A stretch of 64,000 nucleotides of DNA from a virus (lineage: Duplodnaviria > Caudoviricetes): the IMG/VR virus record IMGVR_UViG_3300047189_000056, positions 541 to 64,540 of that record. One strand, written 5' to 3'. Positions 5,361-54,555 of this stretch are shown here, piece by piece (positions within the stretch are counted from its first letter, which is position 1; each line of letters starts with the position of its first letter). The notes under the pieces were generated by a model. It had not been told where the DNA came from. It ran no database searches and saw only the letters and a list, made by a program, of their open reading frames with translations. The translations under genes and the position numbers were made by a program.

Positions 5361-6448
5361 CCCCCAACCTCCTTCTAAATACTAATCCCATGGAGATTTA
5401 ATATCGTCTTTAAGCAATCAATCTCTTGTTGTTGATATTTTATGATATTTTTATCGTGAAATCTTATCCATTTTCTGATAGCAGATATTTGAATAATAGT
5501 TCTTCTTATAGAATCTTTCTTTTTCGGTTTAGATATTAGATTTATACACCTCATCCTTCAACCTTCTTTATCAGAATATTTTACTTTATAACCTCATCCA
5601 GAAAATTAAGTATTTCTCTAACTGCATCTTCCAATGCGTGGACTTCTCTTGCCAAAGGAGTCTCATCATCATCATCTGCTTGGCAATTACGCTTAAAGGT
5701 TCTATTTAATCTTTCTTCAATTTCCCTTAATTTTCTATCCATCCCTCAACCTCCTTTACTTATATTCCTTGATTTCTTAAAATAAATACTAAGTGCTTCT
5801 AATTCTCCAGTTGCCCTTATTTTTCCAAATCTCAAATCTTCTTGCCATTCCATAAAACCAAGGATTTTCTTACATCCTGGGCATCGAGGCCCAAAAATCC
5901 ATTTAGTTGATGTACGGGCAATAGTGTCGGAGCAACAATCACAATTAGTAAGAATGATGGTGTAAGACCTAATCATCTCTCCCCACTGCCTACTTCCCAT
6001 CCCTGGGGCAGATGTAATCATTTTTGGCTCCAATGTTCCCACGTAGAGCATTCTTTATCGGTGGGTGTCAAACCATATTCACACCATGACGTAGATAATG
6101 GATCATCTTCATGCATTACATCATACTTACAATATTTACAGGTATCACAAGGTTCTGGGGTGTTCATCTTCCTCTCCTTTCATCTGATCCACAATTTCCT
6201 CATCCCATTCTTCAATATCAAATCCTGCAAGTTTAGAATCCTCTCTTAGTTGGGCAATAAACCTCCTTCTGGATTCAAGCCAATAGAATAGACTAATGCG
6301 CTTGACCATTTCTATAATTCTTGGATCAGTTTTAAATAACTTTCTTCCCAGTTCAAAACCCATCCATGTTTTATCTTTCCAAACTTCCTCAAACTCTTTT
6401 TCATCTTCGGTCATTTGTCCTCCCCAATCCACTGATTATTTTCCCATC

Positions 6449-7990: not shown

Positions 7991-9019
7991 TTAATCCTTT
8001 AATTTCTCTAATTTATCGTTAACCATCTTTGTGATCTCAATTATCGTTTTGGAAGGATATTGTTTCTTCCAATCGGCTCGATTCTTTTGATAGTATTCCA
8101 TCAATTCCTTTTTCTTTCCGAAAGCCAAGATGGTTCTTGAGAAATCTGCGACTGCTTTGGCCCAATCTGGAATGAGTTTTTCTTCTGGTGCCGATTCAAT
8201 CGGTCGATCTGGAATCATACCAGCCTTTTTCGCATCTTCGAGAACTTCGGTTTCCGTTGGATTATCATCTCCAATTTTGGAATCGGTCTTTTTACCAACT
8301 GCCCATATAGAAATGAGTCTACCCGATTCTTCATTAATTTGTCTATTTAATGGAAAAATATGCTTATGCTGTTCCTGTAATTTTATAGGTTGGGGGATTC
8401 CTGGTTTATCTGGGGTAAGCAAAAAAGAAACCGTTAATTCATAGGGCATTTCTTTTGAACAAATGGGTTGAAAACCCATAGGAATAATTTGCATTTTTCC
8501 CTGTTGGTCTTTCTCCATCTTTATCTTTTCCTCGGCTCTAAAACATAGAATTAAGTTTGCCCGAACCTGAAGAAGCCGCTGAATCATTTGTTTATGGGCT
8601 CCTTTTGGTTTAATCCAGGAAGCCATTTTGCAGGATTCTCGCTTCTTCCAATCATCTCCTGCCATACGTTGGAGTTCTTCTTCTTGCCAATCTAAAATAC
8701 CTCCTTCTCCCGCCCATTCATGGGAAGATGAATCTACGATAATAGCTTTATAACCAGCTTCATCGGCAACTTTGATAGCATCAGTATAGGCAGAGGGTCG
8801 AAAGGGTATCTTTAAATCTCCATGATCAAATTTAAAAAGATCTGCATAATGCTTTGCTCGGCCTGCTTCGGTGTCGATAACGGCAAATGGTTTATCACCA
8901 CAGATGCCCTTAGCAAGACGCATAGCTGTGAATGTCTTGCCACCGCCAGAGGGTCCTATAAGCCCAATCAATAACGAGACTGCTTCCCTAACCGCTGGTC
9001 TAAAGGTAAATCCATTCAT
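7991..9019 (-). CDS. AAA ATPase, Sak4-like recombination/annealing protein
   Basis: Walker A GPSGGGKT, VIDTE, IIVDS; next to RecE-like nuclease. Confidence 0.8.
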   Translation of the reverse strand: MNGFTFRPAVREAVSLLIGLIGPSGGGKTFTAMRLAKGICGDKPFAVIDTEAGRAKHYADLFKFDHGDLKIPFRPSAYTDAIKVADEAGYKAIIVDSSSHEWAGEGGILDWQEEELQRMAGDDWKKRESCKMASWIKPKGAHKQMIQRLLQVRANLILCFRAEEKIKMEKDQQGKMQIIPMGFQPICSKEMPYELTVSFLLTPDKPGIPQPIKLQEQHKHIFPLNRQINEESGRLISIWAVGKKTDSKIGDDNPTETEVLEDAKKAGMIPDRPIESAPEEKLIPDWAKAVADFSRTILAFGKKKELMEYYQKNRADWKKQYPSKTIIEITKMVNDKLEKLKD

Positions 9020-10317
9020 GGTCTTACCTCCTCATCCATGAATACAATTCCATCCTTCACAACATAAACACCTATCCTTTCTGGAATATTAGCTGGTTTT
9101 TCACCAACGATAGTTGCTAAAATCGTAGCTTTTTTCTTATCAGCAATATCGACATATTGGAAAATTGAACGGCCAAGACTCTCTCCTCTATCGAGAAGAT
9201 CGATCCCTAAACCTTCTGGATAGAGTGCCGACAGTTCTTTGGATAATCTTTCAATCTGTGAACCGGAGAGCATACCAGCTTGGGTTCCCTGATAAGTAAA
9301 AACCCCTGATTCATCAAATGAGAGTTCCTTGATCCCGCAGATCTCACTTATCTTGAAAAGTTTGGAAACCTTTTCTTTCTTGAGAATCCTTTGCTTTTCC
9401 TCAATATGAGAGAGTTTATCTTTGTCATCTTCTCTTTCTTGACTTCTGGCAACGTTCTTTTGATATTGCTCAACCCGGACCTGATTGGCGGCACCTTCGG
9501 TAATTTGGTTTTCAATAGCTGAAGTGTCAGGTGATTCTGGTTTCTGTTGCTCCGTTTGACGGGGATTTTCTTTTACCCATGCCGACATATCGTTTCGTCT
9601 ATTTCGGCAATCTCCGAGTTTAGTTTCGAGTTCTTTGATCTCTTTATCCCACTCTTCGATGTCTGCCTCTGCATTAAGAACTTGGCTGTTATGCTCAATA
9701 ACGATTCGATTCTGAGCATCTATATCAAAGATTTTAACCGAATAATCCCCTTTAACCTTGTTTAATTGAGCCTTCAATGGATTAACATCGATCGGTTTCA
9801 CTTCCGTCAAATCAATTTCCCCATATCCCTTAATCTTTGCTCGGAGATCCCTGGCATCAATTTCAATCTGGTTCATCTCCTTATCGATCTCTGAGGTATC
9901 CACCGCAAAGAGTGTAGTGAAATATTGCTTTCTCTCAAGTTCGGTCATCTTCCTGAGATAGTCCTGGTCAAGAAGGAAAGGGTTTAAAAACTTCTCAATC
10001 TCTTTGACGGGTTTCTTAATGATTTTCCCATTGTTAACAAAGACAATCTCCCTTGCATGGGTCTGCCCATCTTTGCCCTTATACCATTCACGGTTTAGGG
10101 ACCCTCCTTCAAATTCAAGAGTAACACTGGCCCCTGTCTCACCATGGCGGATAATATCTGAAGGATATGAACCTCCGAAGCAGAATTTAACCGAATTCAA
10201 AATGGTTGTTTTTCCCATCATCAGATCGCCATAAAAAAGAATGAGAGGTTTGTTTAATTCAATCGTAGTATCTTTGATCATGCCAATATTCTTAATAATA
10301 AGTCGTTTCACTTTCAT
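9016..10317 (-). CDS. SMC/Rad50-like ABC ATPase with coiled coil
   Basis: IKNIG..., GDLMMGKT Walker A, long coil, LSGSQ signature, LLDRGE Walker B. Confidence 0.8.
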   Translation of the reverse strand: MKVKRLIIKNIGMIKDTTIELNKPLILFYGDLMMGKTTILNSVKFCFGGSYPSDIIRHGETGASVTLEFEGGSLNREWYKGKDGQTHAREIVFVNNGKIIKKPVKEIEKFLNPFLLDQDYLRKMTELERKQYFTTLFAVDTSEIDKEMNQIEIDARDLRAKIKGYGEIDLTEVKPIDVNPLKAQLNKVKGDYSVKIFDIDAQNRIVIEHNSQVLNAEADIEEWDKEIKELETKLGDCRNRRNDMSAWVKENPRQTEQQKPESPDTSAIENQITEGAANQVRVEQYQKNVARSQEREDDKDKLSHIEEKQRILKKEKVSKLFKISEICGIKELSFDESGVFTYQGTQAGMLSGSQIERLSKELSALYPEGLGIDLLDRGESLGRSIFQYVDIADKKKATILATIVGEKPANIPERIGVYVVKDGIVFMDEEVRP

Positions 10318-15673: not shown

Positions 15674-15958
15674 TTAGGATTTGGTAATGGATTTAAATAT
15701 TTCGAGGAGGGATTTTCCGCCTTCGTAGATAGTTGCCGAGGAGTAAAAGTCAAACATGGTTTTCCCGCATTTATTTATCCAAAGTCTTATTCTTTCCTCT
15801 GTGAGAGGCAATTTACCCTTTTCAATTTCTGAAATTTTGCCTTTTCCTGTTCGAAGTCCCATTAATCGGGCAAGTTCTTCTTGAGTCAAATCTGAATCAA
15901 GGCGTAATTGTTTAAGAACTTGACCCCATTTTCGGTTACGATGGATTTTTCTTGACAT
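15674..15958 (-). CDS. XRE-family HTH repressor (CI-like, 94 aa, no S24 domain)
   Basis: LKQLRLDSDLTQEELARLMG...ISEIEKG; divergent from cro-like gene; start placed at ATG 15958 to avoid overlap. Confidence 0.8.
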   Translation of the reverse strand: MSRKIHRNRKWGQVLKQLRLDSDLTQEELARLMGLRTGKGKISEIEKGKLPLTEERIRLWINKCGKTMFDFYSSATIYEGGKSLLEIFKSITKS

Positions 15959-15989
15959 TTCCTTTTCGATGTTATATAAAGTAGAACTA
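15952..15989 (+). promoter_or_regulatory. PR-like promoter with second operator copy
   Basis: TTGACA(15952)-17 bp-TATAAA(15975); ATGTTATA-N5-TAGAACTA at 15969-15989. Confidence 0.7.
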
Positions 15990-16210
15990 TGAAAATTCGG
16001 GATTTTTGCGAATTGCGAAAAAAAACATTGAAACAATTCTGTGATGAGAATGGCTATCGATATGGGTATTTGAGACAGATTTCCTCTGGACATGTTCGGC
16101 CATCACCCGATCTTGCACTTCGGATTGAGAAAGATACCGAAGGGTTAGTAACAAGGTTGGAACTCCTGTATCCTTTACACAAAAGGGATACTCAAGAATC
16201 GTGCCAATAG
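15989..16210 (+). CDS. Cro/YdaS-like HTH protein
   Basis: YLRQISSG..RPSPDLALRIEKDTEGLVTRLELLYP. Confidence 0.85.
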   Translation: MKIRDFCELRKKTLKQFCDENGYRYGYLRQISSGHVRPSPDLALRIEKDTEGLVTRLELLYPLHKRDTQESCQ

Positions 16211-16792: not shown

Positions 16793-16925
16793 AGTCTACA
16801 TTATCAAACAAAGTAGACAAGAAAGTTTTTACCCACAACCTGTTGTGGTTTGAGACGAAATGATCAACTTGACCTCTCCCATACCCAGTGATACCCTCCT
16901 TCTCATTCCAATCGAGGAGGGGGAT

Positions 16926-17966
16926 ATGAAAGGAAAAGTCTATTCACATGGCAAAGGCTTTAGGGTTTACTTTAAAGGGGAATGGTTTTCTCATGACGAA
17001 TTTGGTAGGCCGCTTAAATCTAAGTTCTATGCTTATTCATTTCTCGAACATCTAAACGCTCTTTACGATCCGGATCCTGCTAAGAACCGTTATCATCCTT
17101 CAAAGTTCAAGAACAAGACGCCATATAAGCTTGATGAGGCGTTTGCTCTCTACCTTGATCGGAAGCAGACTGATTCCGGCTGGCAAAAGGCAAAGGAATG
17201 GATCTGGAAGAAATATTTCATGGTTTATTTCGCCAATCAAGACTTTCGAACAATCGATGACGTCCAACTCCAGGCCTTTGTCAAATGGCTGGAGGGCAGG
17301 GACCTTAAGGGGAAGACAATCAAGAATATCCTGATGATGTTGCATGGATTTCTAAATTACTTCAAACGTTCAATCAATATCTTTCCTCAATTCCCTTCAA
17401 TTTCTTACCAGCAACCCCGGCCAAAGAAATTTACAGACAAAGAAATTGATCAAGTCTTTGAGTTCATCCAGGAGCAAGATAGGGGTTATTTCCTTTTTAT
17501 CCGGTATTACGGAGTCCGTCCCGAGGAAGCCAGTGGGCTCCTTCGATCAGCTATTAACTGGGAAACCGGGGAGATCACCATTTCGACCGTCTTTGTCAAT
17601 GGGCGCGTAAAGCCAAAAACCAAGACCATGAAGGAAAGGGGACTCCCGATCATCCCCGAGATCGAACCCTATCTCAAATCAACCACTCTATCTACCTTCG
17701 TTTTTCAGATAGGGCGCCATCCCTACACCCGGCATGTTCGAGAGAGTCGGTGGAATAGGGCGATGAAACAGGCTGTACAAAAATACAGTGCTCGGGTAAT
17801 GACTCTGCGGGATCTCCGATCGAGTGCAACAAGCCGATGGCTAAAGAAGGGGATGCTTATCCAGGATGCAGCTCAGTTGCTCGGAAATTCCCCTGAAATA
17901 ATCAGGAAGCATTACAGCGACCAGACGGAAAATAAGGTCGTGGAAATAGTGAGAGGAAAGACTTGA
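16926..17966 (+). CDS. int: Tyrosine integrase
   Basis: YYGVRPEEA (R), LRDLRS, LLGNS, KHY (Y); SAM-like domain KTIKNIL; SD GAGGAGG before ATG 16926; adjacent attP. Confidence 0.9.
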   Translation: MKGKVYSHGKGFRVYFKGEWFSHDEFGRPLKSKFYAYSFLEHLNALYDPDPAKNRYHPSKFKNKTPYKLDEAFALYLDRKQTDSGWQKAKEWIWKKYFMVYFANQDFRTIDDVQLQAFVKWLEGRDLKGKTIKNILMMLHGFLNYFKRSINIFPQFPSISYQQPRPKKFTDKEIDQVFEFIQEQDRGYFLFIRYYGVRPEEASGLLRSAINWETGEITISTVFVNGRVKPKTKTMKERGLPIIPEIEPYLKSTTLSTFVFQIGRHPYTRHVRESRWNRAMKQAVQKYSARVMTLRDLRSSATSRWLKKGMLIQDAAQLLGNSPEIIRKHYSDQTENKVVEIVRGKT

Positions 17967-18229: not shown

Positions 18230-18895
18230 ATGTATCGCCTAATGGATGGCATTGAATTTCTTAAATCCCTTCCCGATAAATCCGTGGATGGGATTTTTAC
18301 GGACCCACCGTGGGGATTTCGAGTATCTGAATCATCGACTGGACATAGAACAAAAAAAGGAATTATCAGAGGAAATGAAAATTGGCTCGAGCTGATTAAG
18401 GGAATGACAAATGAGGGGGCGAGAATTCTTAAGCCCGACGGCCGATGTTTGATCTGGTTGGGAGTACGACACATTGGTCCTGTCTGTAAAATAGTGACCA
18501 CTCTCGAGTACCGTTGGATGATCTTTGTCAAATATATGCCTCCGAGGTTCATGGCTGGTCTCCAGTCATACTTCGATGCGATTCTTTACTTTGCCAAACC
18601 CGAATCTCCATGGCCTGACAAGGTCGGCGGAAAATGTAAACCTCAAGAATATGTCAAGTATTCAACTGGAAAGTCAGATACGAATCATCCCTGCGCTCGG
18701 CCATTCAAAAATGTAAAACAGATTTTACGAGATTGGTTCAAGGAAGGGGAGAGAATCGTTGATCCATTCGCCGGATCTGATACTACTGGCCGAGCAGCTC
18801 GAGAGCTCAATCTAAAATGGGATTCTTGTGAGATTGACCCTAAAATGTACGAAACGGGTATTGAGCGACATAGGCAAGGGATTCTTTTTGAATAG
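18230..18895 (+). CDS. N6-adenine/N4-cytosine DNA methyltransferase (beta class), orphan
   Basis: SVD.IFTDPPW, HP..RP, DPFAGS.TT motifs. Confidence 0.9.
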   Translation: MYRLMDGIEFLKSLPDKSVDGIFTDPPWGFRVSESSTGHRTKKGIIRGNENWLELIKGMTNEGARILKPDGRCLIWLGVRHIGPVCKIVTTLEYRWMIFVKYMPPRFMAGLQSYFDAILYFAKPESPWPDKVGGKCKPQEYVKYSTGKSDTNHPCARPFKNVKQILRDWFKEGERIVDPFAGSDTTGRAARELNLKWDSCEIDPKMYETGIERHRQGILFE

Positions 18896-24021: not shown

Positions 24022-24405
24022 ATGGCTCTCGATCCTGTCGAAGTCGGGAAAAGAATTTACGAGTCTTTGGGTAATCCCATCGTTGAATGTCTTGAAAAGA
24101 AAGGTATTACTGTTGACTATCTCGCGGATAAACTCAAGGAAGAACTCGGCGCAACCGAAACCAAGACCTTTCAGTATCAAGGTGGTGTGGTCGACTCTGA
24201 TCCAAAGATAGCCTGGGACATCCGCCAGCGAGCAAGGATGGATGCTCATAAGATCCTCAGTCATTATCCTTCCGAGAAACATCACATTACAGTTGAAGGT
24301 CTGCCGGTGGTCCCATTAACCGAGGATGAGCAACTTGATCTGGAGGCCCGGAAGCAGATCATTAAGGAAAGGACGATGAAAGCGGCCATAAAGAAGGATG
24401 TTTGA
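24022..24405 (+). CDS. Putative terminase small subunit
   Basis: Position, size; GIT.DYLA.KL.E.L.A...R..A pattern. Confidence 0.6.
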   Translation: MALDPVEVGKRIYESLGNPIVECLEKKGITVDYLADKLKEELGATETKTFQYQGGVVDSDPKIAWDIRQRARMDAHKILSHYPSEKHHITVEGLPVVPLTEDEQLDLEARKQIIKERTMKAAIKKDV

Positions 24406-24895
24406 CATTATGCCAAACTCGCTCGTATCAAGGGTTTGCGGGCAGGTGGTACGGAGAAACTTAGGTTAACTTTAAGTATGCCTGAGGAGTACTTGATATC
24501 ATTGAGATATTAGAGTCGGACATTATGGCGAACATTCACAGAATGTGTATTATCAGACGTAAATTGTCTATAAGTAAGGAGAGTTAAGCGATGGAGAGAA
24601 GAGGCAAGGCCCCCTACCCCCCCCTACCGGCAGTCCCCTTAAACTGTGGATTCACCTCCCCTCCATGTAGCATTAACCCTTCTCTCTCTATTCTCTCATA
24701 TTCATCCAGATTTAATTCTCAGAAATTTTTGGGGGTAATTTATGAAAAATAGTTTTCCCTACTTTGCTGACTTCTGTTGGTACTATGAGAAGTGGGGTTT
24801 TCATCAGTAGTGGGTAGACGGGAAGGCATTGAGCGGAAGAATGTGGTATGTTTGTTTTCATTGTGGGTTAAAGACCTTGCTTGGATTGAGATAGA

Positions 24896-25126
24896 CTATT
24901 TCTTCGGGATCAGGTCTGAGAACTCGTTTAGTGGAAGTTGTTGTTTCATGGGGAATTCTTTATTGCCGTAGAGGACAAAGACTTGGCCTGTGAGTCGGTC
25001 GAGTTTATAGCCGGTGATGAGAGTATTGGAACTAGAAACGGGATGGATTGAATATCTGAATAGGGAGAGGATGCAGATGATGAGGATGAGAAAGATTGTT
25101 ATGAGAACGGCATAACGAGGTTTCAT
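24896..25126 (-). CDS. Antisense moron: single-TM membrane protein with its own promoter
   Basis: TM helix, YKLDRLTGQV; minus-strand TTGACT-16-TATTAT (25145-25172) and SD GGAGG. Confidence 0.75.
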   Translation of the reverse strand: MKPRYAVLITIFLILIICILSLFRYSIHPVSSSNTLITGYKLDRLTGQVFVLYGNKEFPMKQQLPLNEFSDLIPKK

Positions 25127-25192
25127 TATTCCTCCGTGGGATAGATAATATCAGAGTGATTTAAGAAGTCAAGAGTTTTTTAAGGAGGAGAC

Positions 25193-26851
25193 ATCGAACC
25201 TCAAGTAGTCGTCAATAGCACCTATCTTGACCAGCGCGCCCACGAAGAACTCTACCGGGACGACCTCGCTTTCTTCTCTCTCAATGCCGGCATTATGCTT
25301 GATGGCCAGCCTTTTTCGTTCAAGTACCATGAATATTTGATTGAGCCCTACGAGCAGATTCGGAAGCATCAGGAGGTGATCTTTGAGAAGGCGGCCCAGA
25401 TGGGGTTGTCAACCCTAGAACTTCTCGATACTTACCACGGTGCGAGGTACGGGACCTATCCTCATGGCGTACTCTATCTACTTCCTTCGAAGACGGATGT
25501 TACGGAGTTCTCAAAGTCCAAGGCACAGAGCCTCATTGATGAGAACCCTATCATCGGTTCATGGATCAAGGATACGGACACCGCGAACGTCAAGAAGGTC
25601 GGTAATGCATGGTTGTTCTTTAGAGGGATGCAGTCGAGGATAGGCCTCAAGACCATCACGGTTGATAAGATGGTCTTTGATGAGATTGAAGAAATTGAGG
25701 ATTGGTCACTGGTGGCATTGGCTGAGGAGCGGATGAGTCACATTGAGGAAGAGAAGAAGTTCACTCACCGGCTCTCGGTCCCATCCATCCCCGCTTATGG
25801 AATAGATGCTTATTTTGCTGGTTCTCCGGATGCCGGTATCAGGCCTTCCGATCAGCGGTTCCTTCATTTCCAATGCCTTCACTGTAACGAATGGACGTGC
25901 TTTGAGGATGAGTTCCCGGACTGCATTGTCGAGGTGGATGCAAAGAGGGAGAAAGCAATTAGGATATGTAAGAAATGTAAGCGTGAGCTCCCTTTGTCCT
26001 CTAAAATAGAATGGGTGCCTCGAGACCTTGACTCCAACATCCTTGGTTACCACTTCTCCCAACTCTTCTCTCGTTATGTTAATCCCTGGAAGATCCTTGA
26101 TCAGTTCCGTAAGAAGCGCGAGCTCACCACCCTTTTCAACGATAAACTCGGCATTCCCTATGTTGACGCTGAAGCCCGACTTGAAATCCGTGACATCCTT
26201 GCCCTCTGTACCAGCAATCTTCAGCTCAGTGCTTTTGCGGGTCCTGCGGCTATGGGGGTCGATCAGCCCAAGGAAGAAGGGGGAAAGTTTCATGTCACGA
26301 TCGGATACCGCCAAGAGGGTAAACCCTGTAACATCGTTAGGGTCTGTATTCGAGAGAAATGGGCGGAGATTGGTGAGCTGATGGATCAGTTTAATATCGC
26401 CCGTTGTGTGGTTGATGGACTCCCCGATCAGGCCAAGGCCAGGAGTTTTGCTAAAGAGTTTAATGGGAAGGTTTTCCTCTGCTACTATTCCGATAAACAG
26501 AAGGGCGCAGCCAAGTGGAATGAGAATGATTGGATGGTAAGTGTTGATCGGACTGAATCCCTCAACTCATCTACCCGAGCTATTCATGAACAGAAGATTT
26601 CTATCCCTCGGTCGGACGATACGGATGTTAAACTCTTCGCCCGCCATGCCCATAATATTGCCCGCAAGAAAGAAGAGGATAAGGATACCGGCTCGGTCAG
26701 GCAATGCTGGGTTAAAACTGGAAGCGATCACTATCGACATGCATATAATTATTTATGGTTAGCTTTACCAGAGATCGGTGAGTACATTCCTCCAAAACCA
26801 AACGATTGGATGGGGAACCTGCCGAAGAAAAGGAATTGGAAAACAATATGA
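25193..26851 (+). CDS. terL: Terminase large subunit, GpA-like; probable ATC start
   Basis: KAAQMGLS, FDEIE Walker B, CxxC/CxxC, GVD and DH nuclease motifs; frame open from TAAGGAGG-agac-ATC. Confidence 0.88.
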   Translation: MEPQVVVNSTYLDQRAHEELYRDDLAFFSLNAGIMLDGQPFSFKYHEYLIEPYEQIRKHQEVIFEKAAQMGLSTLELLDTYHGARYGTYPHGVLYLLPSKTDVTEFSKSKAQSLIDENPIIGSWIKDTDTANVKKVGNAWLFFRGMQSRIGLKTITVDKMVFDEIEEIEDWSLVALAEERMSHIEEEKKFTHRLSVPSIPAYGIDAYFAGSPDAGIRPSDQRFLHFQCLHCNEWTCFEDEFPDCIVEVDAKREKAIRICKKCKRELPLSSKIEWVPRDLDSNILGYHFSQLFSRYVNPWKILDQFRKKRELTTLFNDKLGIPYVDAEARLEIRDILALCTSNLQLSAFAGPAAMGVDQPKEEGGKFHVTIGYRQEGKPCNIVRVCIREKWAEIGELMDQFNIARCVVDGLPDQAKARSFAKEFNGKVFLCYYSDKQKGAAKWNENDWMVSVDRTESLNSSTRAIHEQKISIPRSDDTDVKLFARHAHNIARKKEEDKDTGSVRQCWVKTGSDHYRHAYNYLWLALPEIGEYIPPKPNDWMGNLPKKRNWKTI

Positions 26852-37046: not shown

Positions 37047-37547
37047 ATGGAATCTATAACAGAGGGACTTCAGAAACTTGAAGAAGTGTTAGGTCAGGTC
37101 AGTAGTTTCTTGAGGGAAATGAAAGATAAGGAACGGCTGGCGACTAGACTTCAGTCTAAGATCCTCACTCTGGAAACAAGGAGGTCAGAGCTCGAAGTTT
37201 CCTTAGTCAAAGGGGAAGAGAATTTCCTTGCAGCCCAAAAGAAAAAGGGAGAGGAGATTATCGCTGAGGCTATTAAGAGGGCTGAAGGTAAAACCGCATC
37301 TATTCTGTCAGGCGCGAAAGTTGAACTTGACAATCTGGTTTCTAAGAATGATGGACTGAAGAGGGCGGCAGATCTGAGTAATACTGCCTATCTTCAGAAA
37401 TCGGGCGAGATTAAGGCATCCATCAAAGAACTTGAGGATAAAAGGAATGCCTTAGTTAAAGAAATTGCTCTGTCAACCCAGGCCCGGGATGACCTTCAGA
37501 AACAGATTAACTCTATCAAGGAAAAGGCCTCTGCCATTTTGGGATGA
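37047..37547 (+). CDS. Coiled-coil protein
   Basis: Heptad-rich; SD AAGGAGG. Confidence 0.65.
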   Translation: MESITEGLQKLEEVLGQVSSFLREMKDKERLATRLQSKILTLETRRSELEVSLVKGEENFLAAQKKKGEEIIAEAIKRAEGKTASILSGAKVELDNLVSKNDGLKRAADLSNTAYLQKSGEIKASIKELEDKRNALVKEIALSTQARDDLQKQINSIKEKASAILG

Positions 37548-40565: not shown

Positions 40566-43500
40566 GTGGGTAAAAAGTGGGAGAAAGTTATTACCTTCGA
40601 TAAGTCGAGCCTTAAAAGTGGCTTTGATGGGGCAGACATTGGCGACCATGAACTTCAGTGGGCAAGGGACGTAATATTCGATAATAAGGTTCTTGAATCT
40701 GCACCTGGAAGGTCTATTATTGGAACTGAGATTTTGGGTGGGTATCCTGTAGATGGAGTATGTCGTTCATGGGATAAACTTGGAAACAAGACATTCATTC
40801 GGGCTCTCAATGGTGTTATTGAGCGATGGTCAGGAACTGCATGGGTGAATGTTCTCAGTGGATTGAAAGCTGATGTTCCATATGACTTCTTGAACGTCAA
40901 TGACAAAACAGCTATCGTTAATGGATATGATGATGCTCGTGAATTTGTCCCCTCAACGAATGGTATCAGGAAACTTGGTTTAGAGCCTCCTCGTTTCTTT
41001 AAAAAGATTGCATATTTTGAGGATGCCGAAGAAAGTCTTTGGTCGTTGGGAGCCGATGCTGCTTTTGATTCATTGGTTTATAGAATTGAGGAAATATCGG
41101 GTACATCAAAACAATCCCTCGGCCTTGAGGCTCCATCAACCCTTTCAAGAACTTCGACTTTAACTTATACTACCGCACAGGATTTTTCTCTATTCAGTAA
41201 CGGAATTTCTATCTCTAATGATGCCTTTTTCTGTATCTCTATTCTTCATCGAACAAGAGCGTACGTAGATTCTATTGTAATCACATTCACAACATCAACT
41301 GGGAACACTTATACGCTTACCATTGATGGTGAAGAACTCGATCCTATTGATGAGAGGGATAATGTATGGACGATCATTCTGGCGAAGAAAGCCAGGTTTG
41401 TTGCAACGGGGACTCCAAGTTGGGCAACCATCACCTCGTTTTCTATCACCCTCACTGGTCAAACGGGAACTGCTCAAGTTTTCATGGACAACTGCTATTG
41501 GAAGAATCCACCCATGGAGGCCACTGCTTATAAGAAACAAATTGATAACTTTGAGGGTCTTCCAAGTGGTTGGACGGTAACTAATGGTACATTGAGTGAT
41601 GATCCAGATCCTGACCATCGGGTAGAAGGTTCGAAATCCTTAACGGTTACCCGGTCTGCCAGTCCTACAACAATATCTAAAACCGTTGTTTTAGATCTTA
41701 GCCAATTTCCCGATGAAGTAGTTGCACAAGCAAGTGACCAGATTTGCCTATCCGTTTTAGTCCCAGCCACAACATATTTAACCAGTATTACTGTGAAACT
41801 TTACACGGATGATACACATTACTTTCATTATACCTTTACAGTTGCATCGGGAGAGATAAAAGCATCTGGTACCGAAGCATGGAATTATCTCCGCAAAGCG
41901 AAGGCTTCCTTTACCGACTTCGGAACTGCAAACTGGGCGGTGATTACAAAGATCGAGCTCAGTTATATTTCAACTGGTGCATTGTGGCTTGTTTTCGATA
42001 ACTGGTCTTTGGAGCCAGCTCAGGATATAAAGGTTCTTGCCACGATGGACTATGAAGATGAAGCATGGGTTTTTAGTGGTACTGATCATGGATATTCTAG
42101 TGATGAATCTAATAAGGTAGAGGGATCTTCGTCTGCGTGGATAGAATGTAGGGCTCGCCCTGGTACAAGTGGTTATGCTCAACTTACCCTTACTGCTCCG
42201 GTAGATTTAACTGCACTTGGTGCAGGGATTGTTTCTGGAGATACAGATGTCATTTCATTTTGGGTTACGATAAAACCTATGTCGGTTGGGTATTCTTCTT
42301 ACCCGACGATAGAAAATATTAGAGTAGAAATCGATTGTAATACTGGAGACTTCGCAACTGATTATTTTTGGTATGAACTTTCGCCATCAGCCATATTCGG
42401 TTTTATGACGTCAATTCAGGTGTTTTATCCTGAGTATGGAATATACCTGATGGATGGATATGGAAGGATAGAAATTAAGAAAGAAGACTTTACACGTGTT
42501 GGAATTACCGGTGGAAAGGGATGGTCAACCGTAAAAGCTTACCGTCTCTCAGCTAAGGCTATTAATGCTGGTTCAGACCTCGCACTTAAAGTATATTTTG
42601 ATGATCTGGTTATGAAAAGGATGGAAGCATTATTAAGTGGTATTTATCAATGGGCCTATATATTCCTTGCCTCTGATGGGACAAAATCAGGCTTATCAGA
42701 GTGGACCGAACAAGTTACCTTATCTGGTTCAAAAGCTATCCTTAATCTTATTTCTATCTCTGGGGATTCAGATGTAGTAGAAAAAAGATTTTACCGTAAA
42801 GGAGGTTCTTTGGGTTCGGATGCAAGAGTTGATTTCAGTGTTTTTGATAATGTAACCACAATATATTGTCCTGATACCTTGGATCATAATTTAGGTGAAC
42901 TCCTTGATGAGTCAGAAATTCCACCCGGTATAATCAGAGTTCCAATGGGAAGTAAGTGGGGTCCTAAATTTAAAGGGGAGTATATCCTTTATAGAGATCC
43001 ATCGAATCTAAGACGGGCTTACTATTCCCTTCCAGATAATATCTATGGTTGGTCTGAGTTGAGGGCTTACGACTTCGAATCCGACCTCCTTGATGTTTTT
43101 ATTGAGGATAATATACTTTTTTTCAATACTAAGAATGGGATCAAGTCTCTTTCAAAAGCTATGAGTGAGGCTACCCCTTCTGATTTCCATGAGACAGCGA
43201 TAATCAAACATTCCATGGGGCCGTTTGCTTCGTGTCAGGTTGATGAAGAAAGAGCTATCGTTTCTTATGAAGGAGTCTATATTTTTAACGGTGCATCGGT
43301 TCGATATATTTCTGATGATGTAAAAGACTATTTCGATCCAGCAACCTATACTATCCAAGATGCGATCGTTTTCTACCGAAAAAGGCATCTTTACATATCC
43401 GTTATGAGAACAGGTGGTCTTAGGAAATTTCTTGACTGCTATCTCAAGGTCGACGGAACAGTTGCATGGAGGACCAGTGATTACATTGTGAACTGTTTCT

Positions 43501-44132
43501 GTGTCGCTGAAGGGATAGGAGATAACAACGAAATCTATGTGGGTGACCGGCAAGGAAATGTTTACCAATTTGACAGCGGTTACGTCTCTGATTTTGAGGT
43601 TATTACCAGAGATTTTCCTGCCAATCCTATTGATCCATTTGAGGAAGTAATTCTTGCTGAAATTTATGTAATGGCTAGGAGTCTATCTATTAATCCTGGG
43701 GCGGTTCAGGTTCAGTTCCGTATAAATCAGAGGTTGGAGCCTTTGGTTACGAAATTATTCCCTGCGGTTGGTCATCTATCCTCTATTTATAGGCTCTACC
43801 ATGCCCAACTGAGGGGTATTGAGGATTATTTGAAAGGTCATAAAATAGGATTAGTTGTAACTCCATCTGTAGGTGATAAACACCAAGCTATTGAAGCTAT
43901 TAAGTTGGTTGGGGAAATAGCTCCACTTGAGGAAATCTATGAGATTGATCTTCTTGCCCTTCAATTAACAAGCAGTTTACCTTTTGAATTAACCGATGAC
44001 ACTCATTTATATCTGCCAGCCGAGAGTGAAATTGGAGAAAATAAAACCGAAGAAAGTGTAAAAGGATTTATTCTTTTAGAGACAGGAGATTGTGTTCTTC
44101 TTGAGACAGGATTTCGAATTTTTCTTGATTAG
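40566..44132 (+). CDS. Tail nozzle/tubular protein with inserted jelly-roll-like domains
   Basis: Follows adaptor; propeller-like N and C parts (YYS..D...W, GVYIFNG...ISD); three internal W..I repeats. Confidence 0.65.
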   Translation: MGKKWEKVITFDKSSLKSGFDGADIGDHELQWARDVIFDNKVLESAPGRSIIGTEILGGYPVDGVCRSWDKLGNKTFIRALNGVIERWSGTAWVNVLSGLKADVPYDFLNVNDKTAIVNGYDDAREFVPSTNGIRKLGLEPPRFFKKIAYFEDAEESLWSLGADAAFDSLVYRIEEISGTSKQSLGLEAPSTLSRTSTLTYTTAQDFSLFSNGISISNDAFFCISILHRTRAYVDSIVITFTTSTGNTYTLTIDGEELDPIDERDNVWTIILAKKARFVATGTPSWATITSFSITLTGQTGTAQVFMDNCYWKNPPMEATAYKKQIDNFEGLPSGWTVTNGTLSDDPDPDHRVEGSKSLTVTRSASPTTISKTVVLDLSQFPDEVVAQASDQICLSVLVPATTYLTSITVKLYTDDTHYFHYTFTVASGEIKASGTEAWNYLRKAKASFTDFGTANWAVITKIELSYISTGALWLVFDNWSLEPAQDIKVLATMDYEDEAWVFSGTDHGYSSDESNKVEGSSSAWIECRARPGTSGYAQLTLTAPVDLTALGAGIVSGDTDVISFWVTIKPMSVGYSSYPTIENIRVEIDCNTGDFATDYFWYELSPSAIFGFMTSIQVFYPEYGIYLMDGYGRIEIKKEDFTRVGITGGKGWSTVKAYRLSAKAINAGSDLALKVYFDDLVMKRMEALLSGIYQWAYIFLASDGTKSGLSEWTEQVTLSGSKAILNLISISGDSDVVEKRFYRKGGSLGSDARVDFSVFDNVTTIYCPDTLDHNLGELLDESEIPPGIIRVPMGSKWGPKFKGEYILYRDPSNLRRAYYSLPDNIYGWSELRAYDFESDLLDVFIEDNILFFNTKNGIKSLSKAMSEATPSDFHETAIIKHSMGPFASCQVDEERAIVSYEGVYIFNGASVRYISDDVKDYFDPATYTIQDAIVFYRKRHLYISVMRTGGLRKFLDCYLKVDGTVAWRTSDYIVNCFCVAEGIGDNNEIYVGDRQGNVYQFDSGYVSDFEVITRDFPANPIDPFEEVILAEIYVMARSLSINPGAVQVQFRINQRLEPLVTKLFPAVGHLSSIYRLYHAQLRGIEDYLKGHKIGLVVTPSVGDKHQAIEAIKLVGEIAPLEEIYEIDLLALQLTSSLPFELTDDTHLYLPAESEIGENKTEESVKGFILLETGDCVLLETGFRIFLD

Positions 44133-48343: not shown

Positions 48344-49423
48344 ATGAATGGTATGGGTGGTGAATTTGATACTTTAAGTCCTTTTGAGAAAGTATTTCAG
48401 ATTCTTACAACCATTGGAGGAAGGCCCGGAGCCTTAGGGGAACTCAAGGATGCAGAAACCGCAAGGAAACTCAGGCGGTTTCAACTTGAGGATCTCATGA
48501 GAACCAGAGAGGAGGGGGAACGGCCGGCATCCCTTCCTATTTTCACTCAAAAAGAAATGCCCTCTGCCGGACTTGAGCATCTTCCGTCAGGGGAACCTCC
48601 TTCTTATGATTTCCCAACTGCTTATAGAAAGGAAATGGGTGTTGAGCAGATCCCGATCCCTGGTTATAAAATGCGGGATATTGGGAAGGTTGACTTAGGA
48701 GATCTCTATAAAAGTTTTACTGGTCAGAAGAAATCTTATGCAATCAATAAAGAGGGTCAGACAATGACTTATACTCCCGGGGAGCCATTGCCTCCTGGAT
48801 ATACTCCGATAGAACATCAGTTTAAGGGAGAATCGGATGAAGCGATCCAACACGTTAGTAATCCATGGCAAGACGAGTCTGGAAACCTTTATGTCACTAA
48901 AACTTACAAGAGTGGTAGGACAGTTCACGAACCGGCGATGGTTCCTGGGATAACCCCAGAAGTACAACCTTCTGTGGCTCCCTCTATTGGTCAGCCCTCT
49001 CAACCGTCTTTAAAAGGAAGACAACTTAAAGGTAAACAGACCCCTAAACTTCCTCTTCACCGAGATTATGCCGATGAAAAAACCGGCATTACTTGGAGAC
49101 AGGAATACGAGGATGATGGGAAAACCAAGAAGGGGATTCCTTATAAAGTCAGAGTTCCTGCACCAAAGCAAACTAAGGCACAAATAGATGACCTTTTCCA
49201 ACGCTACAATATCCGTAGAATTGAAGCCCCTACCGATCCTGCACGTATAGAGATGATTAAGAATCTGAAGGAAACGTTTCCTGATATTGAAATTCCTCTT
49301 CATTTGCCAGACCTTACAAGGGAGGAGTTCGAGAAGTATATAAGTAGTGGTAAGATGCCGGAGAAACAGGCCGAGAAAAAGAATGTCATTAGGTATGATG
49401 TTAAAGGGAACAGGATACAATGA
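48344..49423 (+). CDS. Putative ejection protein
   Basis: Position; C-terminal IRYD..GNRI motif coupled to the next gene. Confidence 0.55.
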   Translation: MNGMGGEFDTLSPFEKVFQILTTIGGRPGALGELKDAETARKLRRFQLEDLMRTREEGERPASLPIFTQKEMPSAGLEHLPSGEPPSYDFPTAYRKEMGVEQIPIPGYKMRDIGKVDLGDLYKSFTGQKKSYAINKEGQTMTYTPGEPLPPGYTPIEHQFKGESDEAIQHVSNPWQDESGNLYVTKTYKSGRTVHEPAMVPGITPEVQPSVAPSIGQPSQPSLKGRQLKGKQTPKLPLHRDYADEKTGITWRQEYEDDGKTKKGIPYKVRVPAPKQTKAQIDDLFQRYNIRRIEAPTDPARIEMIKNLKETFPDIEIPLHLPDLTREEFEKYISSGKMPEKQAEKKNVIRYDVKGNRIQ

Positions 49424-52400
49424 TTAGTGTTGAAATTGAAGGAAGGGGACAGGTAGCTGAGTTTCCTGATGAGACAGATCAGGCCGTAATTGATGCTACT
49501 ATCAAGAGAGATTTCTTCCCTGAACAGAATCTGGGTCCTCTCCAACGATTGGGGAGAGGGATCAAGGATGTGGCGACCGCTTTTGCTCCACTCTTTAAGC
49601 CATTGGATATGACGGTGCAGGGACCACCTCTGGCGAAAGTTGGTGAACCTGTTGCTTCTATAGAGGGAGAGGTTACCCAACCCGTTCAACCTGTTGTTCA
49701 ACCAGAACCTGTAACTCCTGTGATTTCCAGCCTGAAGGAACAACCCCAACCTTTCTACAAGCAAACTCTTCCTGAAATGTTAGGGATGGTGCCTGTAAAG
49801 CCTAAAAAGATTCTTGGGGAACTCAAACCGGAAGATAAGGTTAAGGCTTCCAATATCATCGCGATGTCCCAAGAGTTAGAACTTCCTCCCTCATTCGTTG
49901 ATCAGAATTATGATGCGATCACTCAGAAATTAGGCATGAGGGGAGTTCCTACAAGAAATGAAATGGTGCAGATGTTTGTCGCTGCAGCCATAGGCCAGGG
50001 TTTTATCACTGCTCCAATCGCTACCCTGATGGGTGTTGGCACCTACATGGGAGCGAAAGAAACTGAGAGCCTTGCAACCCAAGTTATTAAAGGTGAGAAG
50101 CCTAAACTTCTTCAGGGCAGAGAGTTAATGGAATTCCTTGGTCAGTTAGGGGAACCTCAGAAAAGTATCGCGGAGGCCTTGGAGTTTGCGGCCCCTGGAT
50201 TCCTTGGGGCTAAGATAATGTCTAAGGTCAAGGGTAAACTGAGTGAGAAATTAGCTAAAAAACTCATTGATGAGGCTTGGGATGACTATGTTCAGAAGCA
50301 ATCAAAGAATTTGCTTGAGTATAAGGCGAGGATTGAAAGGGCGCCGGTTGAAGAAGTCCCGCCCATAGAGCCAGCAAAGCCAATTGAACCTGTTGTAAGG
50401 CCACCTGAGCCTATTAAGGCTGAGAAATTAGTGAAGCCTGAGGAAATCTCGAAGCCAGAGGTTATTAAGGCTCTTGAGGAGATTACAGAACGTGAAAAAG
50501 CAGCATTCAAGGCCGAAGGCAGATTGATGCCGGAGGAGGTGCTGAGGGAGAAAGCCCGGGCTAATGAGTTTGGGGATCTGATACCAGAGTCGGCAAAGTT
50601 ACCTGAAGGGAAACCAACTGAGGAGGAAATTAGGCAAATAGTAGGACAGGTTTGGCCTCTACCTGAACAAGTTAAGCCTAAAGGACTTGAAGTAAGGAAG
50701 GAAGAAATTAAAAAAGGGAAATATATAGAAGCGAAGGTTGAGGTATTAAAGCCTACCGATCCCGAACTTACGGGAACAATCCAAGAATTGAGTAACATCA
50801 TTAAAAGTGGTCAACCAGGTGGGAAAACATTTACTTCTACCCGTACAGAAAATCTTATAGTGGGGGGATATGGTTCTTCTCAAGCCGTAGAAAAAGTGGT
50901 AGGCATGGAAGGTGTATCGAGGGAGGAAGCCCTTAGAGCAATTGATAAAGGCCTTCGCGGTGAGAAGTTAGGTTTGGGACAGCAAAGAATATGGGATTCC
51001 ATAAGTAAAAATGCCAAGCAAATAATAGAGGATAGAAAGGCACAGGAAGAGTTGGATGTGGCCCGGGCCGAGATTGCGAAGGCAGATCTCGCAAAGGAAG
51101 AAACAAGAAATGCCTTGACAAAACACATTGACGATGAAATAATGGGTCTCAAGGAGCAATTATATGAAGAAGGTTATTCGGACACAGAGGTCAGTGGAGC
51201 TATTGAAGAGGTTACAAAAGGTATCACGGTTGAAGTCCCTCCTGCAGACATTGAAGGAATCGAAAGAGAAATCCGCTCCCTTATCACCCCAAAAGTAGAA
51301 ACTGAGGAATATCCATATCCTCAAAGGATTTGGACAGAACCTACCCTTTCCCCCACCGCTAAAGATCAATTTGCTCTCCCTGGGAAATCTGCTATAATAG
51401 AACCAGTGATAGGCAAGAAGGGGAAGGGTACTCCCACCGTAGAAACCCCAAAGCCCGAAGGTGGGGAAATATTGAAAATGTCCCATGATGAATTCAAGAA
51501 GTATCTTTATGACCAAGCAGTCGAAACTCGTATGGAACCAACCGCTCCAGGACAACGTCCCCAAGCATTTCATTATTTGCGAGCAAAGATTGGTGATGAG
51601 GGAACTTTTTTTAGAAAAGGCCAATTACCAAAAGGAGGGCAAAGTTATAATTATGCCGAAGGAAGATATGAAAGTGGAGTTTCAGTTTATCCAAGTCCAG
51701 AGGCAACTTCCCTTGCTGGACTTTCTGAAGGAAATTGGTTCTATGGGCATGGTAAAATTGTTGATATCGGATCTGATTTTGAACCAATCATAAAACCCAT
51801 CGGAGAATGGAAAAAGATTGGTAAAAATGAATACGAAGCAGTTGAAAATTATCGTAAGATACTAAAAAAAGAATCCCTCCCTAACCTCACCCCCCCGGCG
51901 GGAGCGGCCGGGGCTGTTTCAACAGAACCCTCCACTCTTCCACAATTATCGCCTACAGAGAAAAATCAATACAATCTTCCCGGAATAAAACAAGGTCTTG
52001 AAATGAAGGGAGCCAAAGAGGGAGTTACGCCTACCCTTGAAGGCACTCCTCTGGGTGAAGCAGCAAAAGAAGCGGCAAGGAAGACGGAGATCGAGAAGGA
52101 ACCTACTCTTTTTACTTCCGAAGCAGGAGCAATTGCCCTCGACCTACTTGCTCCAGGTGCCCAAAAAGTAATCGCTGCCACAAAGGAAGTCATTGAAGCC
52201 TATAAACGTCCTCCCGAGATAACAGAATCTAAAAAGATTATCGGGAAATATACCGGTGCGCTCCAGGAGATTGATTTAGAACTCAGTAAACTGGGTAAGG
52301 AAATTAATGAGAAACTTCCCAAGGACCGTCAGGAAGCAATTACAAACTATATGCAGGCTGGAGGAGAAGAATCTCTACTTACGGAACGGTTACAAAAGAG

Positions 52401-54555
52401 CAATCTAAAACACAAGAAAGGTTATAGGGATGCCTTAGGTCTTACTCCAGAAGAAAAACAATGGGCTGATACCATCCGTAAACGGTTGGATGATGTCTGG
52501 CAACTTGCTTATGATGCAGATGTCATTGAAAGTTATGTAGAGAATTATGTTCGAGGGGAATGGGTTCGTCCAGAACAAGCCGGTAAGAAATTGATGGCTC
52601 AGGCTTATTCAGGACTAATGCGTACCAAACCACGTGAGGCTCTTCGTAAGGTCTTCCACGATTATTATGAAGGAGAACAGGCAGGTTTTGAACCAAAGGA
52701 TAAGCGAATAGGTTATCAACTTGTCACAGCAGAACGATCTCTAAGGCAGGCAGTTGAAGCGAAAAAAGCACTCAAGGCATTGATGGAAAGTACGGAAGAA
52801 GATGGTCGCCCAACGGTCGCCGTGGGTGGATCTGGTAGTTATATTCCTAAAGAAAAACTGGATACCAAAGAAGCATACTTTATTAAACCCAACACTAAAG
52901 GGAAGGATACAAGAGATTATAGATCCATTGATCATCCATCATTGAGGAAATGGAAATGGGTTGATTCAGATCCCGATGGTAAACCCATTATGCTTGAAGG
53001 AAATATGTGGATTCATCCCGATGCTTATAAACAAATGAATGCGCTTCTTGGAAAATCAAAGATTAGCACTTATACTCTACCCGAAAAGGTTCCTATTCTT
53101 GGGGGAAAACAACTTGGACGTATGGCATTAGAAGCGGGAGGATTTATTAAGGGAACTATTCTTATTGGCCCATTTCATCAATTTCATGTTGCCGAGCATG
53201 CTGTATTTCATAGAGTGAGTCCATTTGGTCTTCCCCCGATTGATTTTGAGAAACGTCCTCTCTTAAAAGAACTTGTTGAGCATGGACTTCAACTTGTTAG
53301 CCATAATGCTTTAGCAGAATTTGGAGAAGGCCTTGCGTCTGGAGGATTACTTCATCGGATACCCATTCTTGGAGATTATCTAAAAAAATATCAGGAATGG
53401 CTCTTCCAAGATTATATCCCAAGATTAAAAGCAACAATGGCAGAGCATGCAGTAGACCGAGCGAAGGATTATTATAAAGAAGATCTTGCCTCTGGGAAAT
53501 TCACATGGGATCAACTTCTTGAGAATGTTGGAAAACAGGCGAACGCAGCATTTGGAGAACAGAATTATAAATATCTCGGAAGAGATCCAACCCTTCAGGA
53601 TGCACTACGGATAGTTCTCCTTGCCCCAGACTTTCTTGAGGCAAGACTTAAATTTGCAGGTCAAGCTGCTCGGCCTTATGGTAGAGAACAATTAACTGCA
53701 CTTATTTTGGGTGCAATGATTATGGGGGTTACTGCCCAAGTCCTTAATATCATGTTTTCAGATGATCATAAACCTCATTGGACCCGACCATTCACGATTA
53801 GGATTGGGAAAAGAGAATATACTCCCCGTTCGGTTGTTGGGGATATAATGCATTTGATTACTGATCCAAGGAGCTTTTGGTATCATAGATTAAATCCTCT
53901 TTGGGGAAGACCTCTTCTTGAGGTAAGCACAGGTAGGGATTTACAGGGTCGTAAGGTGGGAGTGATAGATAGTGTCAAGGATATTTTAAAGTCATGGGTT
54001 CCTATTCCAATGCAGGGTATTTTTAAAGATAACATGGGAGAATCAATTTATGACTCAACCATTAATGCTTTATTACAGTCTGTTGGAATGTCAAACTATC
54101 CTTATAAGAGTGATTTTGAAAGATATGCCATTGAGATCTTGGGTGAGAAATGGAAGGGTATTTCAAAAGAGCAAAAAGAGAAATCTAAATTTAAACGAGG
54201 TTTAGCAGAAAATATTAGGGAAAAGAAACCAGAAGCAGTAAAGGATGTGTTGAATGCTGTAAAAGAGAAAACAATTACTCTACAACAAGCGATGGAAATT
54301 CGCCGTAGGGCAAGGGAAGATCCTGCTTTGTCATTAGGTAAAATGTTAACCGTCCCCGAACTCTTAGGGGGATGGAATAAAGCAAATGATGCAGAAAAGA
54401 AAATACTAAAGCCACTCATTGTTAAGAAATATTTTACTTGGAGAGCTCCATTGAAAGAGAAGATGGAGGTTCAAGCGAAGGTAAAAGAAGTGAGGCGATG
54501 GAAAGGATTACAAGGATTAGGTTCGCAGGAATTTAAAAAAGCTATCTCAGAATAA
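49420..54555 (+). CDS. Large ejection/internal virion (polyvalent-type) protein, 1711 aa
   Basis: VEI.G.GQ.AEFPD N-terminus; size and position; helical C-terminal region. Confidence 0.7.
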   Translation: MISVEIEGRGQVAEFPDETDQAVIDATIKRDFFPEQNLGPLQRLGRGIKDVATAFAPLFKPLDMTVQGPPLAKVGEPVASIEGEVTQPVQPVVQPEPVTPVISSLKEQPQPFYKQTLPEMLGMVPVKPKKILGELKPEDKVKASNIIAMSQELELPPSFVDQNYDAITQKLGMRGVPTRNEMVQMFVAAAIGQGFITAPIATLMGVGTYMGAKETESLATQVIKGEKPKLLQGRELMEFLGQLGEPQKSIAEALEFAAPGFLGAKIMSKVKGKLSEKLAKKLIDEAWDDYVQKQSKNLLEYKARIERAPVEEVPPIEPAKPIEPVVRPPEPIKAEKLVKPEEISKPEVIKALEEITEREKAAFKAEGRLMPEEVLREKARANEFGDLIPESAKLPEGKPTEEEIRQIVGQVWPLPEQVKPKGLEVRKEEIKKGKYIEAKVEVLKPTDPELTGTIQELSNIIKSGQPGGKTFTSTRTENLIVGGYGSSQAVEKVVGMEGVSREEALRAIDKGLRGEKLGLGQQRIWDSISKNAKQIIEDRKAQEELDVARAEIAKADLAKEETRNALTKHIDDEIMGLKEQLYEEGYSDTEVSGAIEEVTKGITVEVPPADIEGIEREIRSLITPKVETEEYPYPQRIWTEPTLSPTAKDQFALPGKSAIIEPVIGKKGKGTPTVETPKPEGGEILKMSHDEFKKYLYDQAVETRMEPTAPGQRPQAFHYLRAKIGDEGTFFRKGQLPKGGQSYNYAEGRYESGVSVYPSPEATSLAGLSEGNWFYGHGKIVDIGSDFEPIIKPIGEWKKIGKNEYEAVENYRKILKKESLPNLTPPAGAAGAVSTEPSTLPQLSPTEKNQYNLPGIKQGLEMKGAKEGVTPTLEGTPLGEAAKEAARKTEIEKEPTLFTSEAGAIALDLLAPGAQKVIAATKEVIEAYKRPPEITESKKIIGKYTGALQEIDLELSKLGKEINEKLPKDRQEAITNYMQAGGEESLLTERLQKSNLKHKKGYRDALGLTPEEKQWADTIRKRLDDVWQLAYDADVIESYVENYVRGEWVRPEQAGKKLMAQAYSGLMRTKPREALRKVFHDYYEGEQAGFEPKDKRIGYQLVTAERSLRQAVEAKKALKALMESTEEDGRPTVAVGGSGSYIPKEKLDTKEAYFIKPNTKGKDTRDYRSIDHPSLRKWKWVDSDPDGKPIMLEGNMWIHPDAYKQMNALLGKSKISTYTLPEKVPILGGKQLGRMALEAGGFIKGTILIGPFHQFHVAEHAVFHRVSPFGLPPIDFEKRPLLKELVEHGLQLVSHNALAEFGEGLASGGLLHRIPILGDYLKKYQEWLFQDYIPRLKATMAEHAVDRAKDYYKEDLASGKFTWDQLLENVGKQANAAFGEQNYKYLGRDPTLQDALRIVLLAPDFLEARLKFAGQAARPYGREQLTALILGAMIMGVTAQVLNIMFSDDHKPHWTRPFTIRIGKREYTPRSVVGDIMHLITDPRSFWYHRLNPLWGRPLLEVSTGRDLQGRKVGVIDSVKDILKSWVPIPMQGIFKDNMGESIYDSTINALLQSVGMSNYPYKSDFERYAIEILGEKWKGISKEQKEKSKFKRGLAENIREKKPEAVKDVLNAVKEKTITLQQAMEIRRRAREDPALSLGKMLTVPELLGGWNKANDAEKKILKPLIVKKYFTWRAPLKEKMEVQAKVKEVRRWKGLQGLGSQEFKKAISE

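Follow-up and report, generated by a model that had tools for sequence, protein, structure and literature searches.

A small gene of a temperate phage, predicted to encode a membrane protein, ends in a short peptide that recurs in a large putative virion protein of the same phage. The same kind of echo was found in two unrelated phages, suggesting that the peptide may be a decoy that blocks a second infection. We analysed a window of 64,000 nucleotides, which is all but the first 540 bases of a 64,540-bp IMG/VR virus record with direct terminal repeats (IMGVR_UViG_3300047189_000056, Caudoviricetes). On the minus strand of this window, the ORF at 24896-25126 encodes a protein of 76 aa (P0002) that begins MKPRY and ends NEFSDLIPKK, the codons of this tail motif lying at 24899-24928. 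On the plus strand, the ORF at 49420-54555 encodes a 1711-aa protein (P0001) with NEFGDLIP at residues 382-389, nt 50563-50586. Seven of the eight residues are identical, and five of these seven use different codons. The observation made in the first-pass annotation, that the two proteins share this motif with mostly different codons, is therefore confirmed.

Whether the match exceeds chance depends on the question asked. When all ORFs of the window were compared with one another, we found 8 such 8-mer window pairs at 6 distinct sites, whereas shuffled proteomes gave 3.49±2.03, and 97 of 100 shuffles contained at least one. The other five 7-of-8 matches join unrelated ORFs, e.g., DIEEWDEE (6145-6432) with DIEEWDKE (9016-10317), and SGEIKAS (37047-37547) with the same peptide in 40566-44132, and show what chance yields in this window. 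Taken alone, the match is thus a post-hoc pick from an expected crop. As a pair named beforehand, however, it is rare. Shuffled P0002 found a 7/8 match somewhere in the window's ORF set in 2.45% of 2000 shuffles and in P0001 in 0.25%. The tail alone matched P0001 this well in 4 of 5000 shuffles, and its ungapped BLOSUM score of 40 was reached in 1 of 1000, while BLASTP gave E 0.014 for the single pair.

We next assessed the genomic setting of the small gene. It lies on the opposite strand between a 127-aa ORF (24022-24405) and terL (25295-26851; GpA_ATPase, E 4.5e-18), with a P22-type portal gene (E 1.6e-134) following terL on the plus strand. The 127-aa ORF had been labelled terS, but its only hit is DUF6958 at E 0.0048, under the cut-off for that family, and it has no PHROG hit. 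A sigma-70-like site, TTGACT-16 nt-TATTAT with TG (10 of 12), lies at 25172-25145 (-), and GGAGGA stands as a ribosome-binding site just before the ATG, the two together occupying 25127-25172 (-). This is a consensus match only, as the region holds 3 promoter-like sites against 2.1±1.3 in shuffles. The only terminator-like site on that strand is about 480 nt downstream, at 24418-24400. The stretch of about 490 bases between the 127-aa ORF and the end of the small gene (24406-24895) holds no supported ORF, and scans around the gene for Rfam families, tRNAs and inverted or other repeats found nothing. The earlier label of moron is only partly borne out: GC is 0.433 in the gene, against 0.47-0.48 in the flanks and 0.424 in the window, and a search for related loci with terL found no relatives. 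Assembled sequences matching the window were only short contigs identical to it and one diverged contig over 24078-24153, which carry no information on variation in the tail or on presence or absence of the gene. Sequencing runs with this DNA are freshwater-sediment metagenomes, and no RNA run is listed among them.

The phage is temperate, as shown by a tyrosine integrase gene at 16860-17966 (+) (PF00589, E 5.6e-9) and an HTH_3 gene at 15674-16093. Between a 105-aa ORF and this HTH_3 gene, on the same strand and divergent from the integrase gene, lies a 58-aa paralog of P0002 (P0007, 16293-16469 (-); BLASTP E 6e-7, and E 7.7e-21 in a further search) that lacks the tail motif. The phage therefore carries two members of the family, one in the lysogeny module and one in the packaging module. 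An N6/N4 DNA methylase gene (18230-18895 (+); PF01555, E 1.2e-18) lies near the lysogeny module.

P0002 belongs to a family for which neither Pfam nor PHROGs has an entry. A word-index search found two relatives (P0003 and P0004), and a profile of the four sequences found 161 proteins at E<=1e-3, nearly all of 55-110 aa, with P0002 itself at E 4.5e-32. Of the 151 proteins kept, 145 carry the core motif. P0002 has no PHROG or Pfam family at E<=0.01, and thus no membership in an annotated superinfection exclusion family among these; among 47 members scanned, no family is shared by more than 2. The ESM Atlas gave only 'hypothetical' clusters. Searches of GenBank phages gave no match for P0001 or for the small protein of phage G003 (see below), and for P0002 only hits at E>=6 to T4-like thioredoxin regions, which we take as noise. 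The core consists of R-[YFW]-x-hydrophobic directly after the TM helix and [AG]-Y-[KR]-L-D-R-[WFL]-T-G about 12-20 residues later; P0002 has RYSI at 24-27 and GYKLDRLTG at 39-47.

AlphaFold2 with 47 sequences predicts a single TM helix at residues 3-22, preceded by the short basic stretch MKPR, then a small domain of four beta strands (25-30, 38-43, 48-53 and 56-59; pLDDT blocks mostly 75-96) and a tail (60-76) of lower confidence (blocks 64-68), with a mean pLDDT of 84. Charge bias favours a cytoplasmic N-terminus and an outward-facing C-terminus: the N flank is more positive than the C flank in 89 of 144 members, equal in 44 and less in 11. Members with long Arg-rich N-terminal extensions, and one with a second TM followed by a basic end, also fit an outside domain. 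A lipoprotein was considered and rejected, as by eye there is no lipobox before the Cys. A holin or spanin role was rejected because of the gene's place and the paralog in the lysogeny module.

Family members recur in lysogeny-related contexts, although not exclusively. In one phage (G002) the member ends 17 nt after a CI-type repressor gene (Peptidase_S24) on the same strand, opposite a Cro-like gene. In G001 it lies between structural genes, on the opposite strand. In G003 and G411 it is convergent, just past the 3' end of a giant gene, while in G410 and its close copy G413 it is divergent, at the giant gene's 5' end. Of the 5 family-bearing records confirmed from 7 further stretches, 4 are proviruses. 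One member lies in a Terriglobia chromosome (locus L012, about 760-950) with no phage genes nearby, directly after ftsH and before a TPR gene, a glycosyltransferase fragment and an IS1595 transposase that interrupt the usual ftsH-folP-glmM run. The family is rare, with 2 of 401 genomes in a sample of one phylum, and a search of genome contigs with the family found nothing confirmed. A metagenome scan gave 18 loci, mostly of 1-3.5 kb (two longer), too short to hold a large protein, and none showed a tail match.

The first-pass annotation had named lack of motif conservation in either family as grounds for refutation, and by this measure the literal motif fails. F..[LIV][LIV]P occurs in 2 of 145 family tails, those of P0002 and P0065, the latter with NPFAGLIPPKK and ending NPFAGLIPPKKD. 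P0001 has four phage relatives (P0005, P0006 and the proteins of loci L014 and L015), which align with it only from residue ~435 on, so that the motif stretch has no counterpart. F.D[LIV][LIV]P is absent from P0005 and P0006, and P0006 has one unrelated F..[LIV][LIV]P at 1287. Moreover, 75 of 145 members, including the paralog, have under 10 residues beyond the beta domain, so the core must work without a tail. The 70 tails of 10 or more residues nevertheless carry recurrent acidic-aromatic motifs, often in pairs: DLSFLPDKP in P0003, P0008, P0015 and P0070, DWSFLPDKP in P0004, DLNFLPDKP in P0011, and ANPFAEINF and PNPFDEFDL in P0113. The alignment of P0002 with the G001 member runs through the tail (LPLNEFSDLIPK against LPL-TFDDISKK). 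A DNA pattern for DLSFLPDKP had no match in viral contigs.

We sought to assess whether the tail resembles the phage's own large protein in other phages that carry a tail-bearing member, and found this in 2 of 5. In G003 (60.8 kb, high GC) the tail ...PAPVDWSQFKPDKPTIDEIL matches the first residues of the adjacent 3288-aa protein, MANEIDWSQFQPEQP...DVDWSQFQPAPEKP, with VDWSQFKPD against I/VDWSQFQP twice (7/8 and 6/8). Six of 5000 shuffles reached 7/8, and 0 of 1000 reached the BLOSUM score of 58. In G411 the 216-aa member (identical to P0085) has DDWSEFESVEPP, which matches QDWSGFEDVAPD three times at 6/8 in a 2928-aa neighbour that starts MAKEQDWSGFEDVAPD and repeats the motif three times. 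The score of 45 was reached by 3 of 1000 shuffles against the first 60 aa, but by 83 of 1000 against the whole protein, so that the latter test is weak. G001, G409 and G410 (with its close copy G413) showed no match, giving 3 of 6 tail-bearing phages when the window is counted. The giants of G003 and G411 do not align with each other by BLASTP at E<=1e-4. Co-variation is only partly seen, as the G003 tail scores 58 on its own giant and 30 on the foreign one, while the G411 tail scores 45 on its own and 44 on that of G003. Four of the six degenerate identical residues in G411 use different codons, as do those noted above for the window, so recent gene conversion or DNA copying was rejected as the source of these matches.

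The giant proteins of G002, G003, G409, G410 and G411 carry polyvalent-protein domains (ART-PolyVal, LPD38, LPD5, LPD23, MuF_C and PBECR3). The giant of the G409 provirus (locus L058) also has a cell-wall hydrolase domain at residues 84-187 (Hydrolase_2, E 2.4e-15), right after its N-terminal motif region, which fits an N-terminal part that works in the periplasm. A scan with the LPD38 region gave 72 viral loci (L071-L142). Of 34 non-redundant complete giants, 18 have a short acidic-aromatic motif repeated in tandem (5 or more of 7) within the first 60 aa, against 106 of 1466 other windows; at 6 or more of 7 the counts are 9 of 34 against 16 of 1466. The feature is seen, e.g., in loci L078, L104, L129 and L088, and examples of the repeats are GNFFDQFDP, NPFDKYD, NPFDQFD and FSYEEAF, each twice, and TNWSDFTP with VNWDDFKP. 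For 33 of the giants (G003 left out), the N-terminal 50 aa resemble the 70 family tails more than other windows do (median rank fraction 0.167, KS p 3e-9), and they beat their own reversed sequence in 24 of 33 (Wilcoxon p 0.008). Other tests of this likeness were less clear. A first test on 8 large proteins was mixed (ranks 1/65, 2/53, 1/17, 3/38, 8/27, 8/39, 8/17 and, for P0001, 22/34), and a rigid 10-column score matrix built from 9 tail motifs did not rank giant N-termini at the top, the best giant hit being rank 8, for L015. The small family is absent from the other 71 of the 72 records with an LPD38 giant, 29 of these being at least 90% complete, and is thus an occasional accessory and not a partner that the giants need.

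The window itself fits this wider pattern only in part. P0001, at the end of the structural block, has no Pfam or PHROG family at E<=0.01, and no Pfam family at E<=5 when scanned in three pieces. Its C-terminal domain does not match LPD38 (hhalign probability 0.5%), and its best internal repeat in the first 60 aa is 3 of 7, which all 27 other windows reach. Its motif is internal, in a P/E/K-rich stretch, whereas in G003 and G411 the motif sits in N-terminal tandem repeats. The P0002 tail is not significantly like giant N-termini in general, as 143 of 500 shuffles reach its score and the reversed tail scores the same, and the P0001 window holding the motif ranks 28 of 212. The label of ejection protein used in the first-pass annotation rests on size, on position after the tail genes, on relatives that occur only in uncultured phages, and on a segment that these relatives share with the G410 giant. 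A 2630-aa ORF after P0001 (55034-62926 (+)) has no Pfam family and a signal-peptide-like stretch near its start (MKKLFVLLFTLVLINCPIYAEA), unusual for a virion protein, and is possibly a giant fibre or a secreted protein. In addition, the tail of family member P0077 (SPTIPGLYD) matches an internal DPTIPGLYH near residue 651 of the L015 protein, the 1916-aa relative of P0001 in another phage, but by our rough estimate about one such match is expected by chance in a search space of that size.

Given these results, we read P0002 as a bitopic inner-membrane protein made from its own promoter, probably in the lysogen. In this view the short, positively charged N-terminus lies inside the cell, and the ~35-residue beta domain and the optional disordered tail, with one or two acidic-aromatic motifs, lie outside. 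Displayed at the outer face of the inner membrane, the tail would occupy the partner, either a host envelope protein or a conduit-forming phage protein, that the motif of the incoming large protein must engage, so that DNA entry of the same or related phages would be blocked. Our analysis establishes the gene, the family, the predicted fold, the lysogeny-module contexts and the sharing of motifs in 3 of 6 phages, whereas the outward topology, expression in the lysogen, presence of the 1711-aa protein in virions and its ejection, the existence of a shared partner and exclusion itself are inferred. The interpretation offered in the first-pass annotation, superinfection exclusion by a periplasm-facing mimic of an ejection-protein motif, is thus partly supported: the antisense gene with its own promoter-like site, the single predicted TM helix, the predicted outward-facing tail, the temperate lifestyle and the place of family members in lysogeny modules hold, and the underlying idea survives in altered form in other phages. 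We consider it somewhat more likely than not that the match in this window is functional, and give the full decoy mechanism a tentative probability of about 0.38.

The strongest alternative, which we consider only slightly less likely, is that the match in this window is coincidence. P0002 would then act only through its conserved beta domain, in exclusion or some other envelope function, and its tail would be a drifting, low-constraint appendage whose resemblance to a P/E/K-rich linker means nothing. The all-against-all expectation, the lack of conservation in relatives of either protein, the unremarkable scores against giant N-terminal motifs, the many members without a tail and the three phages without a match all favour this view. 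Against it stand the rarity of the match as a named pair, its recurrence in G003 and G411, the recurrence of tail motifs across distant family members and the alignment with the G001 member that runs into the tail.

Other readings appear unlikely. The small protein may be a direct trap that itself binds the large virion protein as it enters the periplasm, the tail being a tethered pseudo-ligand or self-association element that mirrors the true ligand. The motif sharing, a conserved polar surface on the beta domain (R, Y, K, D, R, W) and the action of P22 SieA on the ejection proteins gp16 and gp20 (PMC10883804) speak for this. However, the core is nearly invariant across very different phages while the motifs vary, which fits a conserved partner for the core rather than a variable ligand, and we found no positive evidence of contact; a predicted complex of the G003 beta domain with the first 60 aa of its giant scored 0.00 and was not used as evidence either way. 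Still less likely, the shared motif may serve the phage's own cycle, with tail and large protein docking on one phage or host component during entry, assembly or lysis. The small gene abuts the giant gene in G003, G410/G413 and G411, but the absence of the family from nearly all LPD38-bearing records, the antisense orientation with its own promoter-like site and the lysogeny-module contexts speak against a helper. Least likely, the family may modulate a conserved inner-membrane machine such as the periplasmic part of FtsH and so tune the lysis-lysogeny choice from the outside, as lambda CIII does from the inside, a view suggested by the chromosomal member after ftsH, the repressor and integrase neighbours and a core strongly conserved across phyla, but one that rests on a single chromosomal context into which an IS element and unrelated genes are also inserted, and that leaves the tail matches unexplained.

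Exclusion proteins that stop DNA entry are common, but how they recognise the incoming phage is mostly unknown. A decoy that repeats a peptide of the ejected protein would be a simple, readable rule, from which one could predict from sequence alone which phages a prophage excludes. It would also give a handle on what the giant polyvalent proteins do first when they leave the virion, and on which envelope component they engage. A broader and more doubtful possibility is that temperate phages defend their lysogens in this way, the floppy tail carrying copies of the short tandem docking motif that heads the phage's own giant injected protein and tracking that motif as it evolves. The tandem motif would then be the envelope-docking signal for protein and DNA entry, and its partner could be fished out with the decoy. 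Apart from the mechanism, the work defines a new small-protein family and an N-terminal tandem motif in giant phage proteins, and this wider pattern, in which tails of a small, predicted outward-facing membrane protein family echo the N-termini of giant virion proteins, is the more interesting result.

Several known systems invite comparison. Small single-pass exclusion proteins encoded as morons, such as HK97 gp15, T4 Imm, lactococcal Sie2009 and TP-J34 Ltp, are short membrane-anchored proteins made by a prophage or early in infection that stop DNA entry, and some reportedly act on the tape-measure or ejected proteins. None is known to carry a copy of a motif of the phage's own ejected protein, and neither literature searches nor word searches of a 2024 review (PMC11436027) brought up such a decoy mechanism. 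The founding paper on large polyvalent proteins (Iyer et al., 2017; PMC5512222) predicts that these are packaged in the capsid and injected. By word search only, 'tandem', 'short motif' and 'transmembrane' do not occur in its main text, and the N-terminal tandem motif and the small membrane partner therefore seem undescribed there. P0001 itself has no such domain, although P0006 and the L014 and L015 proteins share a segment of 160-185 residues with the G410 giant (BLASTP E 4e-11, 6e-11 and 2e-8). The nearest known case is P22 SieA. SieA is larger and spans the membrane several times, we found no sequence relation to P0002 in the Pfam and PHROG searches, and no motif mimicry is reported for SieA in the abstract of PMC10883804. 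Like the function we infer for P0002, however, SieA is an inner-membrane prophage protein that blocks DNA injection, its escape mutations map to the ejection proteins gp16 and gp20 (PMC10883804), and the portal of the window is P22-like.
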